Source: an uncultured delta proteobacterium (lineage in GTDB: Bacteria; Desulfobacterota; Binatia; Binatales; Binataceae). From it: a DNA stretch of 64,000 nt. Below are positions 12,782 to 51,089 of this stretch, in pieces; positions within the stretch are counted from its first letter, which is position 1; each line of letters begins with the position of its first letter. The position numbers were made by a program, and so were the translations under genes. Under the pieces are notes generated by a model. The model searched no databases. It was not told where the DNA came from and saw only the letters and a list, made by a program, of their open reading frames with translations. Location: the NCBI GenBank assembly GCA_963756005.1, contig CAVWMC010000001.1, positions 198,872-262,871 of the forward strand. Direction: 5' to 3'.

Positions 12782-13471
12782 TCACTCGCAGGCGCGCTCG
12801 ATTCCGTCGAAAAATTGCCACCACATTTCGAGCGATCGCTCGACCGCGGCCCATACTTTCGCGCGCTCGACTTCGCTCATCGGCGTATGACTTAGAATGT
12901 TGTCGCCGACGTCGCTGTGATCGCGATCAGCGATTTCATGCACGTCGAAAAATGCGACCTGCTCCCGCGAAAGTCCGTAGTTCTTTTCGAGCGCGCGCGC
13001 GAACGGCGCGAAGTTGCCCGGCACCTGGCCCTCCGCCGCCAGATTGATTGCGCCGATTCCCTCGGCGAACGAGCGGTCCTTGGTCGAAAGCTCGAACCAA
13101 TCGATCAGCGCCGCCGTCGAGGGCAGCGCCTTGCCGTGAATCATATCGTCGCGGCTGAGCCCCAGTCCGAGTCCAAGCCGGATGAACAATTCCGGATGCG
13201 GCGCGCTGCCGGAAATCTTGCCGGTCTCCTCCTCGTACAGGCTCTCGGCGAGCTTGACCCGCTCGTCGGCGTTGACGCATCGCGAATGCAGCGCGCTCAG
13301 CGCCCGCGGAAACTCGCGCACCTGCAAAAAGAACTGCGTCGCGAAGGCGCACATTCCGGTCTGCGAAACTTTGCCCTCGGCAATTCGATGCCAAATCGGA
13401 TGACGCCCGAAAGAGCGCCGCTCTTTGACCATCGCGAAGATCTCGCGCACGAATCCGTCATTCGCAGCCAT
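12782..13471 (-). CDS. TenA/PqqC/CADD-like heme-oxygenase-like diiron protein
   Basis: CADD-like motifs FPRALSALHSRC, EEETG...H, AAEGQ, and HxxxDxxH (VHEIADRDH). Confidence 0.8.
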   Translation of the reverse strand: MAANDGFVREIFAMVKERRSFGRHPIWHRIAEGKVSQTGMCAFATQFFLQVREFPRALSALHSRCVNADERVKLAESLYEEETGKISGSAPHPELFIRLGLGLGLSRDDMIHGKALPSTAALIDWFELSTKDRSFAEGIGAINLAAEGQVPGNFAPFARALEKNYGLSREQVAFFDVHEIADRDHSDVGDNILSHTPMSEVERAKVWAAVERSLEMWWQFFDGIERACE

Positions 13472-13536
13472 GGCTAAACCTCATACCCGCGAATGTACGA
13501 AAGCGCGCCCGCAATGTGAAGCGAATCGAATCGAAT

Positions 13537-13788
13537 GCGGGGCTACGCGCCCCGCGCCCGCGGCAGGGGTGACCCCTGCACCCACTGTTCGGTAAGGGAA
13601 TATGCGGGCTGACGCCCGGTTAGGAAGCTTTGGGCGTGAGGACGCGAAGCGACCTCGTGCCCGTAGTCGCGCACAAAGCTCGACGTTCCTGCCATAAAAC
13701 TTCTAACAGGGACGGAGTCCCGCATCTTCTCTCTTATCACTGGGTGCAGGGGTCACCCCTGCCGAGGGTGCGGGGCGAGCAGCCCCGC
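13537..13788. repeat. REP-like/REPIN-like element: 48-bp inverted arms (44/48 identical) around a ~150-nt self-complementary core
   Basis: Arms 13537-13584 and 13741-13788 are reverse complements; each holds two small hairpins (GCGGGGC..GCCCCGC and GCAGGGG-TGA-CCCCTGC). Confidence 0.85.
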
Positions 13789-13791
13789 GTC

Positions 13792-15582
13792 TCAATCGAC
13801 GTGTTGCAAATCGGTCAGCATCTCCTGCGGCCCGATGTATCCGACTTTGCGCTGCGCCACTTTGCCGGCCGAGTCGATTAGCATGGTCGTCGGCACGCCC
13901 TGGATTTCGTACTTGCTGGTCAGCTCCGCGGTCTTTTTGTCCTGCGCGGTGAGGTTCGCCTTCATCCGCACGAAGCGCTTCGCCTCGGTGACCACGGACG
14001 GATCGATAAAGGTCGAATGCTCCATTTCGCGGCACGGAATACACCAATCGGCGCTGAAGTCGATCAGCACCGGCTTGCGCGCTTCGGTGGCTGACGCGAG
14101 CGCTTTGGCGTTGAACGGCTCGAAGCGAAGTTTCTCCGGCGCCTGCCGCGGATAGAGCATGAAGGCGAGCGCCGCCACCGCGACCACGCCGATCGCCGAC
14201 CGCATCAACAGGAACGGACGCCAGCTACGACCCTCGCGCGAAATGAAGCCGAGGTAAATTCCAACGCCGGCCGCGTAGTACGGCAGGATTCGCGTCATCA
14301 GGTTGTTCGGCACCACCGGATCGAGAAAGTAGAGCGCGAGTCCGACCAGCACGAAGCCGAACAGATGCTCGACCCACGCCAGCCACTCGCCCGATCGCGG
14401 CAGGCGCCGAATATGCCCTGCCGCCATCGCGAGCCCGATGTATGGCACGCCAAGCCCCAGTGCCAGCGTGAAGAACAGCGCGAAACCAAAAAATGGGCTC
14501 CCGCTTTTCTCGACCATCAGCAGCAGACCGAGCACGATCGGCCCGATGCAAGGCGCCGCGACGACGCCCATGCCGAGGCCCATCAGAAATGCGCCCGCGT
14601 AGCCGGGATGCGCCGCGCCCGCGCGCTGCAGCATCCACTGAGGCGGCTGCAAAACGAACAGGCCGAAGCTCGACGCCGCCAGGGCCAGGAGCACCGTTGC
14701 CAGGGCGACGAGCACGAATGGATTTTGCATCGCGGCGCCGAACAGCCCGCCCGACATCGCGACCGCTACTCCCACCGACGAGAACATCAGCGCGATGCCG
14801 AGCACGAAAACCATCGCGAGGTACATCACGCGGCGATGAGTGCCGCCCTGGTTGCCGAAGTAGGCGATCGTCACGCCGATCAGCGGATAGACGCAGGGCG
14901 TCAGATTCAGCGCGAGGCCGCCGAGAAACACCGCGAGGAAGCCGAGCAGCCATCCGTGATTGAGAAAGATATGCTCGATGGCGCCGCCCGCGTCATCGCC
15001 GCCGCCGACTCCACGGCCCTTCGCGCCGCCCGCGGCAACGCCCTCGATCGCGCCCGCGGCCGCTCCTGGAGCCGCCAACGCGACTGTCGTGCTGACGGAT
15101 GCGGGCCGCAGACATTCGTTGTTGTTACAGCCCTGGTAGTCGATCGTGACCTTGAGTTCATCGCCCGGCTTCGGCGCGAAGTCGGCAGCCGCCTTGAGCG
15201 GCACCTCAAACTTGAGATCGCCGCCGAACACCGCAATCTTGTCGCCACCGGCCGCAGGATCGAGCGTTATCGTTTCCGCCGGCGGATACTTGATTGCGCC
15301 CGGCGTCACGCTGACCGGCCCGCTGACCTCGAGCTTGGTCGGAATGTAATCTTCGCTGAACGGCTTGTCCGAATTGATATGCCAATCCGGAATAACGGCG
15401 GCGGCGACTTTGAGCGTGCTCGAACCGCCGGCCTTCAGCGGAGGATCGATCGTCGCGGAATTGATTATTACAAGGTCATTCGCCTTGACGGCATGCGCCG
15501 CAGGCACCGCAAGCAAAGTTACGGCAAGGAACGCTCCAGCCAGTATTGTGCCGCGCAAAAGCGATCGGAAATTGCCCGTCAT
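13792..15582 (-). CDS. dsbD: Thiol:disulfide interchange protein DsbD
   Basis: Signal peptide, N-domain QGCNNNECLRP, TM cysteines LTPCVYP and AAPCIGP, C-terminal thioredoxin WCIPC. Confidence 0.9.
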   Translation of the reverse strand: MTGNFRSLLRGTILAGAFLAVTLLAVPAAHAVKANDLVIINSATIDPPLKAGGSSTLKVAAAVIPDWHINSDKPFSEDYIPTKLEVSGPVSVTPGAIKYPPAETITLDPAAGGDKIAVFGGDLKFEVPLKAAADFAPKPGDELKVTIDYQGCNNNECLRPASVSTTVALAAPGAAAGAIEGVAAGGAKGRGVGGGDDAGGAIEHIFLNHGWLLGFLAVFLGGLALNLTPCVYPLIGVTIAYFGNQGGTHRRVMYLAMVFVLGIALMFSSVGVAVAMSGGLFGAAMQNPFVLVALATVLLALAASSFGLFVLQPPQWMLQRAGAAHPGYAGAFLMGLGMGVVAAPCIGPIVLGLLLMVEKSGSPFFGFALFFTLALGLGVPYIGLAMAAGHIRRLPRSGEWLAWVEHLFGFVLVGLALYFLDPVVPNNLMTRILPYYAAGVGIYLGFISREGRSWRPFLLMRSAIGVVAVAALAFMLYPRQAPEKLRFEPFNAKALASATEARKPVLIDFSADWCIPCREMEHSTFIDPSVVTEAKRFVRMKANLTAQDKKTAELTSKYEIQGVPTTMLIDSAGKVAQRKVGYIGPQEMLTDLQHVD

Positions 15583-50317: not shown

Positions 50318-50373
50318 CGGGGATTAGTTATACGCCTCTCGAGAGAAAAAATCATGGAGGGCTGTGGCGCCAG

Positions 50374-50399
50374 GGCGGGCACGGCGGCCCGCCCCACTA
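50374..50399. repeat. REP copy 1 (GTGG-type hairpin)
   Basis: GGCGGGCACGGCGGCCCGCCCCACTA; exact reverse complement at 50444-50469, exact direct copy at 50980-51005. Confidence 0.9.
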
Positions 50400-50443
50400 T
50401 AGGAAAACAGGACACCCAATCCAGTGGACCAGGCCGCCGCAAA

Positions 50444-50502
50444 TAGTGGGGCGGGCCGCCGTGCCCGCCATCGTCGCGCGGGCGTCCGCGCCCGCGCCTA
50501 CC
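50444..50502. repeat. 59-bp composite REP arm on one side of the RAYT gene
   Basis: Inverted repeat of 50947-51005 (56/59 identical); holds a GTGG-type and a GTAG-type hairpin. Confidence 0.9.
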
Positions 50503-50945
50503 TAATCTCTCGGCCAAACCCAGCGATACTCTTTAAGCTCAGGCCACCGAGCAAACGGATTCCCCAGTATATAGTCGAATTTTTGTCCCAGCTCTTTTTC
50601 ATCGCGGACAATTCGGTCGAAGTACTCGTCCTGCCAGACTCGCCCGCGCCGTCCGTGCCGACGCTGCATCGCATGCGCGGTGAACGACTTCCACGAATGA
50701 ATGATCTTCTCGAGAGGCTCGTCGTCCAAGGTTCGCAGCAGGACGTGCACATGGTCGTTCATGATCACGTAGGCATACAGCTCGTAGCGCTGTTCGTGCC
50801 GATGATGCAGTTCCGCCGCGATCAAATCGCGCTCCGACGGGGACAGTTCTTTGGCTGCGGCGAGCCGCCACGTCACGAAATAGATCGTGTCTCGATCGCG
50901 GTAGTGTGGCAGGCGTCTTCGGTAGAAGTGAGATGAGTCATTCAT
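50502..50945 (-). mobile_element. REP-associated tyrosine transposase (RAYT, Y1 HUH family)
   Basis: YFVTWRL, HUH motif MNDHVHVLL, KSFTA, WQDEYFDRIVR, catalytic YILGNP; bracketed by REP arms. Confidence 0.9.
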
Positions 50946-50946
50946 T

Positions 50947-51005
50947 GGTAAGCGCGGGCGCGGACGGCCGCGCGTCGATGGCGGGCACGGCGGCCCGCCC
51001 CACTA
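50947..51005. repeat. 59-bp composite REP arm on the other side of the RAYT gene
   Basis: GGTAAGCGCGGGCGCGGACGGCCGCGCGTCGATGGCGGGCACGGCGGCCCGCCCCACTA; inverted relative to 50444-50502. Confidence 0.9.
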
Positions 51006-51026
51006 CATCACTCATCACTCAATGAG

Positions 51027-51052
51027 GGCAGGCATGGCGGTCTGCCCCACTA
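51027..51052. repeat. Divergent REP copy 4
   Basis: GGCAGGCATGGCGGTCTGCCCCACTA: 4 differences from copy 1, including a compensatory G-C to A-T stem change. Confidence 0.8.
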
Positions 51053-51089
51053 ATGGCGGAGGCCCGCACCAGACACCAGCGAGCGCAAC

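Follow-up and report, generated by a model that had tools for sequence, protein, structure and literature searches.

Dimers of repetitive extragenic palindromes (REPs) that have conserved, structured spacers are documented, as are REP classes for which no dedicated transposase exists (Di Nocera et al. 2013, PMC3733652). Two REP super-families are marked by GTAG and CGTC tags, and the CGTC-tagged REPs have no dedicated transposase (PMC3733652). In the case that defined REPINs (hairpin-forming REP doublets), 61% of the REPs are in doublets (Bertels and Rainey 2011, PMC3116915). The origin, spread and upkeep of repeats of the REP and bacterial interspersed mosaic element (BIME) type are unsettled, especially for the classes that have no REP-associated tyrosine transposase (RAYT). 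The element considered here occupies positions 13537–13788 of a 64,000-nt window (G000:C1:198872–262871), the whole stretch of DNA that was analysed, in a 4.7-Mb, 62% G+C Candidatus Binatus assembly; all positions follow the numbering of this window. It is intergenic, and its neighbours on the minus strand are the stop codon of a DsbD homologue (596 aa, 13792–15582) and the start of a diiron gene (12782–13471). We consider it probable that the element is a BIME- or REP-dimer-like, head-to-head dimer of a Candidatus Binatus hairpin-module repeat, and that it is non-coding. An earlier description made from the letters of the window (the sequence-only reading) had proposed REP-like inverted arms enclosing a rod-shaped, structured core; the feature is real but was partly misread, and it is not a unique RNA gene.

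The arms are as first described. The left arm (13537–13584) matches the reverse complement of 13741–13788 at 44 of 48 positions, and each arm carries two hairpins, an outer GCGGGGC-N5-GCCCCGC (13537–13555 and 13770–13788) and an inner GCAGGGGTSACCCCTGC (13563–13579 and 13746–13762). A repeat finder extended the arms to 62 nt at 84% (13526–13587 and 13738–13799); the left-hand extension is the AT-richer TCGAATCGAAT (13526–13536), which pairs with 13789–13799 and takes the inverted repeat out to 13526 and 13799. A BLAST search of the element against its own genome returned 83 matches. The arms are genome-wide repeats, and the earlier proposal of REP-like arms in a REP-doublet or REPIN-like layout is supported. 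The copy depth per base reached 124 over the inner hairpin and its foot, about 23 over the outer hairpin and about 20 over the flanking parts of the core, and dropped to 2 solely in 13664–13676. With the inner hairpin called module B, the outer hairpin D3 and the repeated part of the core M3 (primed on the left), the element consists of D3'-B'-M3' and M3-B-D3, turned toward each other on either side of a centre of about 55 nt. What was taken for a rod core is two inverted M3 copies plus a central hairpin of about 55 nt, module C.

Module B, GCAGGGGT(C/G)ACCCCTGC, occurs 132 times in the 4.7-Mb genome and was found in 43 of 47 genomes of the genus, at about 40–200 copies each. It is always joined on one side, via ACTGGGT, to a hairpin module M1 (GCAAAGT...ACTTTGC), M2 (AAATGGC-GAGGAC-GCCATTT) or M3 (CTAACAGGGACGAAGTCCCGCAT), and on its other side to D1, D2 (GTGAAACCC...GGGTTTCAC) or D3. 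The commonest architectures in the genome census were B-D2 (32), M2-B-D2 (28) and M1-B-D1 (24), with mixed forms rarer; double composites numbered 2 among about 127 B units (the element and C8:231051–231213), and the centre was not a common independent module. Of 120 units, 77 have the D side turned toward the 3' end of a gene, the median distance being about 43–52 nt, and 5 of 125 oriented units fall within rough gene calls, the others being intergenic. A unit therefore usually runs from the stop codon through D and B to M. Identity with integron attC sites, uptake sequences or operators was considered for these units and dropped, the units being dispersed rather than arrayed, present at about 130 copies and placed after stop codons. 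Module partners are preferred (M1 with D1, M2 with D2) and mixed units few (e.g., C1:42730–42808, C1:22928–23011). The M2 stem covaries (AAATGGC/GCCATTT against AAATGTC/GACATTT) around an unchanging GAGGAC loop, and GAGGAC is also present at 13638–13643, in the conserved half of the central hairpin. A literature search under the phylum names gave no paper on Binatota repeats among its top matches, full texts not having been searched for repeats. The family documented here belongs to an uncultured soil phylum and is absent from Rfam and from annotation pipelines.

The family resembles REPs and BIMEs in consisting of short GC-rich palindromes, in about 100 or more copies, that are extragenic and mostly at gene 3' ends; in being a mosaic of a few motif types (here M1–M3, B and D1–D3); and in having inverted dimers that fold as separate hairpins or as one long hairpin, with spacers that hold small stem-loops of their own. 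Some REP classes likewise have no cognate transposase. It differs in that GTAG and CGTC are both missing, B standing between ACTGGGT and CG and D3 between GGGT or GGGC and ATNCGAT; a unit is a cassette of three hairpins instead of one palindrome, dimers are rare, and the dimer has a conserved asymmetric centre that is kept at orthologous sites across species of the genus. The family also differs in belonging to the uncultured phylum Binatota. With REPINs, the element shares two inverted REP-like ends and a spacer, a predicted hairpin in single-stranded DNA or mRNA, solo hairpins apparently derived from doublets, and signs of excision and copying; it differs in that its doublets are a small minority and that the RAYT of Binatus is flanked by another REP and absent from most repeat-bearing genomes. 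Terminal inverted repeats (the 62-nt arms) are also a feature of the miniature transposable elements with inverted repeats known as MITEs. The Correia repeat enclosed elements (CREE) of Neisseria (PMC5039591; PMC2649163) are intergenic elements of 70–150 bp whose ends are inverted repeats and whose core is conserved and characteristic; they can influence neighbouring genes, and their transcripts can form hairpins. CREE, however, are MITE-like, with a TA target duplication, and create promoters (as is generally known; see also PMC2649163), whereas the Binatus composite has neither a target duplication nor a promoter and is present at 1–5 copies per genome. No direct repeat of a target site was found around the element.

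The composite is confined to the genus, where it is retained in low copy number at a few orthologous intergenic sites. The block M3'-C was present in 25 of the 47 genus genomes, with 1–5 copies each, and in none of 118 genomes from 29 other genera of the family; the centre at 13626–13700 was present in 23 of the 47. The alignment of 27 full copies of the composite (about 260 bp; 272 columns) has a mean identity of 84% and a constant architecture. The composite is asymmetric: the left M3' is GGGCTGACGCCC in 21 of 27 copies, and the right M3 is GGGACGAAGTCCC, GGCCGTAAGGCC, GGGGCGAAGCCCC or GGCGCGAAGCGCC. When loci were defined by clustering the 600-bp flanks of the copies, the composites fell at about five orthologous loci, of which two lie between tandem genes (the dsbD site and the site of the genome's second copy) and three between convergent genes. 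At both tandem loci, the composite follows a stop codon.

Divergence among orthologues at the dsbD site is uneven along the composite. The p-distance was 0.30 at the 4-fold degenerate sites of the neighbouring gene, 0.08–0.09 in the arms, 0.09 in the 5' half of C, 0.13–0.14 in the M3 modules (0.13 in the left M3'), 0.37 in the 3' half of C and the middle, and 0.43–0.48 in the spacers. These distances imply constraint on, or homogenisation of, the hairpin modules and one uninterrupted 50-nt block made up of M3' and the 5' half of C, and drift elsewhere. In the left arm, D3' (GCGGGGC-TACGC-GCCCCGC, 13537–13555) is nearly invariant in the 27 copies, and 25 D3-type hairpins occur genome-wide; feet AATCGAAT and ATTCGATT around the D3 hairpin recur in other copies and in solo hairpins. 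Module B' (GCAGGGGTGACCCCTGC, 13563–13579), followed by the foot ACCCACT (13580–13586), is invariant in the alignment. The left M3' (ATGCGGGCTGACGCCCGGTTAG, 13602–13623, plus strand) holds the local hairpin GGGC-TGAC-GCCC and is an inverted relative of M3 at about 20 other sites. Module C (13626–13680, plus strand) has the stems AGCTTT/AAAGCT and GGGCGTGAGG/CCTCGTGCCC and the cap CGC-GAA-GCG (13643–13651), with GCGAAGC at 13644–13650; the G at 13632 is common to the AGCTTTG and GGGCGTGAGG stems, and CAAAGCT is at 13674–13680. The variable spacer that follows (13681–13702) has diverged at the approximately neutral 0.37. The right M3 (CTAACAGGGACGGAGTCCCGCAT, 13703–13725, plus strand) holds the local hairpin GGGAC-GGA-GTCCC and shows compensatory changes across copies. 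Next come a pyrimidine-rich variable spacer and its foot (13726–13745), the spacer with a divergence of 0.48 and the foot, ACTGGGT (13739–13745), kept genome-wide. The right arm is completed by module B (GCAGGGGTCACCCCTGC, 13746–13762), an inverted repeat that is repeated genome-wide, and by D3 (GCGGGGC-GAGCA-GCCCCGC, 13770–13788), which lies 3 nt from the dsbD stop codon (13792–13794, minus strand).

Folding of the 274 nt from 13526 to 13799 gave −179.6 kcal/mol for the plus strand and −184.9 kcal/mol for the minus strand, against about −111 for shuffled sequences (z = −13.3 and −14.5, respectively); chance is excluded. The minimum-energy fold contains ATGCGGG/CCCGCAT, GTTAGGA/TTCTAAC, AGCTTT/AAAGCT, GGGCGTGAGG/CCTCGTGCCC and the CGC-GAA-GCG cap. 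The stems, cap and GCGAAGC motif listed in the sequence-only reading are thus all present in it, and the stretch read there as a 20-nt 3' bulge is unpaired and corresponds to the variable spacer. The fold signal is strong because the arms, like the two core halves, are copies of modules that recur genome-wide, and the predicted long stem (ATGCGGG/CCCGCAT and GTTAGGA/TTCTAAC) is M3' pairing with M3. Covariation, a check that the earlier reading had itself named, was assessed in the 27 full copies by counting double-change cells against 500 shuffles under a local-hairpin model and a rod model. The right M3 stem, as a local hairpin, had 14 double-change cells against 4.2 in shuffles, none of the 500 reaching the observed number, and one of its pairs is AU in 15 copies, CG in 8 and GC in 3. 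Covariation under the rod model was not above that in shuffles (3 double-change cells against 2.0; 162 of 500), and the rod pair 78–197 is broken in 10 of 27 copies, precisely where the right M3 stem has changed but the left has not. For the central hairpin with its AGCTTT/AAAGCT extension, 84% of cells are paired, against 30–57% with slid partners, and covariation is modest (5 double-change cells against 1.7; 2 of 500). Taken together, the copies identify the local hairpins as the selected structures and the 150-nt rod as a by-product of inverted duplication. The rod therefore stands as a strong fold but not as a covarying one, and a doublet of this kind can form a long rod without selection for it.

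The spacer between dsbD and the diiron-enzyme gene was compared in 30 genomes of the genus and 10 metagenome contigs. Relative to gene direction, the core runs one way in at least 13 lineages and the opposite way in at least 8, which include the window genome. Other states of the site have one M3 module missing, a different middle, D3 and B only, or a single D3 hairpin with either loop polarity. The comparison with empty sites in relatives, also foreseen in the sequence-only reading, thus turned up both solo-D3 sites and one site (L196) that has no hairpin whatever; the other empty sites still have one D3 hairpin, its loop in either orientation, as an internal deletion would leave it. Solo D3 hairpins of both loop polarities are what a deletion between the two D3 copies, whose 7-nt stems are direct repeats, would leave. 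In a tree built from the flanking coding DNA (34 rows), there are at least 5 changes of orientation and at least 11 in whether the composite is present or absent (by loss or gain). Sisters of opposite orientation include L195 and L197 (support 100/99) and L199 and L215 (100/100); the closest pair of opposite orientation is separated by about 5% divergence in coding DNA, and L186, with a solo hairpin, and L211, with the composite, by about 3%. The inverted configuration, with both 600-bp flanks matching, was found at three loci, the dsbD site and two others.

The extent of the inversion can be read from the arms. The outer linkers keep their side relative to the flanks in both orientations (ACCCTCG left, CGCGGGC right), and a perfect inverted repeat, about 24 nt long, is made up of the B hairpins with their feet. 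Since the linkers keep their left/right asymmetry, the flipped segment is bounded by the B hairpins and feet, with the break in or inside B. The segment between the B hairpins has been inverted repeatedly, and the composite collapses precisely to a single D3 hairpin. Complete dimers of either orientation, forms with one half deleted, solo hairpins of either polarity and an empty site thus make up an unusually clear natural series at one orthologous site, and the inverted arms probably cause flips of the spacer on the time-scale of species divergence. The non-coding DNA of plastids also undergoes small hairpin-associated inversions (Kelchner and Wendel 1996, as cited by PMC12371153), in which a spacer between short inverted repeats flips recurrently and homoplasiously without a dedicated recombinase. 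The plastid inversions described there are typically 4–50 bp, whereas the Binatus segment is about 160 bp, structured and partly conserved, and flips at three loci of a bacterial chromosome. At the dsbD locus of another genome (G020, L182:1100–1500), the arms enclose an M2 module and unrelated hairpins, and in G038 (L188) the middle is shortened; the arms therefore act as a frame with replaceable content.

The natural series also includes one case of copying between loci and one of ectopic recombination. Two copies in genome G034, at different loci (L157 C10:28528–28584 and L173 C4:523644–523691), share 95% identity over the stretch that drifts in other copies, against 68% and 82% with their best orthologues, which indicates recent copying between loci or gene conversion. 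The dsbD-site copy of L211 has a "type II" core that is otherwise found at other loci; the core tree is poorly resolved, and nothing but its type II clade and its pairing of the G034 copies was used. On contig L209 (WNFJ01439363.1, 250–700), a single composite links the left flank of the g4 locus, with the 3' end of a gene (...FRWDNGKWFY*), to the right flank of the dsbD locus, with its promoter and diiron gene. This junction indicates a probable ectopic recombination between composite copies and suggests a possible chromosomal rearrangement. In two contigs of one population (L210:693–942 and L212:7158–7407), the composite has the same orientation. Their coding flanks are identical (0 differences in 1290 nt), and two bases differ in the foot of the left B (CACCCAGT and CGCCCGGT); either a higher rate of change in the arms than in the flanks or conversion from other copies may account for this.

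On the reading as a dimer of the Binatus repeat, each arm is a normal family unit which, in the sense of the neighbouring gene, presents a stop codon followed by D3, B and M3 hairpins. The hairpins would form in single-stranded DNA, in replication or transcription bubbles, or in 3' untranslated RNA. The 24–60-nt inverted arms could drive the flips through recombination or template switching, and the palindromic D3 stems could serve as short direct repeats for slippage deletion. Behind the dsbD stop codon, the D3 and B hairpins would act as a putative 3'-end stem-loop cassette that blocks read-through, exonucleases or both, and this predicted cassette may insulate the diiron gene downstream, whose promoter is its own. 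A factor that binds or propagates the family probably recognises the conserved 5' half of C, in which GAGGAC is shared with M2.

Several observations weigh against the dimer reading. The M3'-C5' block is about 3 times more conserved than 4-fold degenerate sites despite its presence at only 1–5 copies per genome, and at this copy number a purely passive repeat does not explain such conservation. In the central hairpin, 31 cells are G-U and 4 are A-C, and this excess, together with a conserved G-U pair, hints at a strand-specific role. No T-run was found after the hairpins, and the element contains no intrinsic terminator with a T-run. The gene calls that underlie the context statistics are rough and cover 75% of the genome. 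No transposase of the composite's own and no copying agent were identified: an autonomous parent element with a transposase between the same arms was absent from the window genome, and no related transposase-bearing element was found within about 1.5 kb of the copies (nine stretches at four other loci), other genomes not having been searched exhaustively.

Some of these points would be met if the composite were a multi-locus invertible or self-copying cassette whose 50-nt M3'-C block docks a putative structure-specific recombinase or nuclease of Binatus. Flips, precise excision to a solo hairpin and inter-locus copying would then be enzyme-driven on a single-stranded, strand-specific substrate, which would explain the conserved G-U pair that stays with the core, and the composite would represent a new, RAYT-independent, REP-like mobility system. 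We regard this as unlikely.

A further reading, which we hold to be quite improbable, is that the core encodes a small RNA with structure, either 6S-like or of a new kind, whose transcription would follow the core's plus direction, with the arms as terminators. The conserved central hairpin with its modest covariation would fit such an RNA, as would the apparent constraint on the 50-nt M3'-C5' block (divergence 0.09–0.13, against 0.30 at 4-fold sites) and the G-U pair and excess, which stay with the core's plus strand in either genomic orientation. The sequence-only reading had taken pairs that work only as G-U on the plus strand as a sign of a sense strand. Such pairs are present in the window copy (G-T and T-G at 13636–13658 and 13637–13657), and the excess is real, but the argument is only weakly upheld: 23 of the 31 G-U cells come from one inherited column pair, and folding energies of the window copy gave no strand preference, both strands being equal as RNA and as DNA. 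A permissive Rfam 15 scan of the element gave nothing above threshold, including for 6S, OMEGA/HEARO and retron msr-msd, so a 6S-like RNA or other known family found no support; the sole match was MIR918, at 59.9 bits against a gathering threshold of 268 and on both strands, which is an artefact of the long GC-rich hairpin. Any perfect hairpin that is long and GC-rich will match this plant microRNA precursor model on both strands at an E value of about 1e-9, and the model can mislead permissive scans. No sigma70-like promoter was found in any of the 27 copies on either strand, whereas the same rule detected that of the neighbouring gene, TTCACA-17-TACATT (13492–13520, minus strand), as the sole promoter-like match within 13300–14000. 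Orthologous sites retain variants from which one or other M3 module, or the greater part of the core, is missing, the composite has been lost at least 11 times if the presence/absence changes are counted as losses, and the rod does not covary. The proposal of an undescribed structured noncoding RNA thus keeps its conserved hairpin, but the core has no sigma70-like promoter and lies in either orientation relative to the flanking genes. The two open reading frames beginning with ATGCGG that the earlier reading had also noted are both present in the window copy (31 aa on the plus strand, 60 aa on the minus strand), but they are not conserved: lengths range from 6 to 64 aa with frame shifts between copies, and they were rejected as coding.

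The earlier suggestion of a REPIN-type, non-autonomous element moved as single-stranded DNA by the genome's RAYT (HUH/Y1) now appears very improbable. In its favour are the inverted doublet layout that forms a long hairpin, the turnover and inter-locus copying, which amount to some mobility, and a Y1 transposase with HUH and Tyr motifs in the same window (50502–50945, minus strand, 147 aa), the only RAYT or Y1 transposase (PF01797) of the genome. GNA-loop mini-hairpins such as GCGAAGC are exceptionally stable in DNA, which also counts in its favour. The RAYT gene, however, is flanked by a separate REP, GGCGGGCACGGCGGCCCGCCCCACTA (26 copies), and not by B, D3 or M3, and Y1_Tnp was found in 13 of the 47 genus genomes against the 43 that have the B unit. 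B-rich genomes without Y1_Tnp include G002, G014, G016, G020 and G038, several genomes with more than 140 B units have no Y1_Tnp, and, conversely, G018 and G005 have Y1_Tnp but no B unit. Mobilisation of the composite by the RAYT was rejected on the identity of the flanks and the phyletic distribution. Doublets, rare here, dominate in the defining case (PMC3116915), and no GTAG or CGTC tag is present. From the flanks of the RAYT, its distribution and the rarity of doublets, it follows that the element lacks the features that define a REPIN/RAYT system. The RAYT cassette itself (50360–51060) consists of a REP family, GGCGGGCACGGCGGCCCGCCCCACTA and GCGCGGGCGCGGACGCCCGCGC, that encloses the transposase gene, and in several copies of this REP elsewhere the initial bases of the RAYT gene's 5' flank (cattcgtcggtaagc...) are still present, as though ends of the cassette had been copied.

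The flips themselves raise the possibility of an inverton, in which a site-specific recombinase inverts the core between the B hairpins and so changes expression of the neighbouring genes; we find this hardly credible. Both orientations occur at three orthologous loci, with at least 5 flips at one of them, and the breakpoints are confined to the inner arms. Bacteroides has invertible promoters that share inverted repeats across loci, and the Binatus loci similarly share inverted repeats and an asymmetric core. Against an inverton, no promoter-like sequence occurs in the core, whichever way it lies, a conserved promoter belonging to the downstream gene stands outside the element, and three of the five loci lie between convergent genes, with no obvious target for a promoter switch. 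The divergence between even the closest pair of opposite orientation, the shared orientation of the two contigs from one population and the lack of a recombinase gene adjoining any copy at the composite loci inspected point the same way, and hairpin-associated inversions also occur passively (PMC12371153). These results advise caution against reading such elements as RNA genes or phase switches. Chance juxtaposition of two ordinary 3'-end units across unrelated sequence, which the usual position of units after stop codons and the three loci between convergent genes, where two units would meet, might suggest, is almost certainly wrong, since 27 copies at about five loci have the same centre and the same left/right M3 asymmetry, two of the loci are tandem rather than convergent, and the centre is conserved well above the neutral level, which contradicts this explanation.

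The head-to-head dimer of the Binatus repeat therefore remains the probable identity of the element, beside which the downstream gene (12782–13471, minus strand) encodes a 229-aa haem-oxygenase-like diiron protein (CADD-like). The promoter-like site upstream of this gene lies outside the repeat and is kept with or without the element. Both TTCACA-17-TACATT and the very short leader of the diiron gene are kept in all orthologous loci, and the spacing and hexamers of this putative promoter suggest that the standard −35/−10 consensus applies in Binatus.

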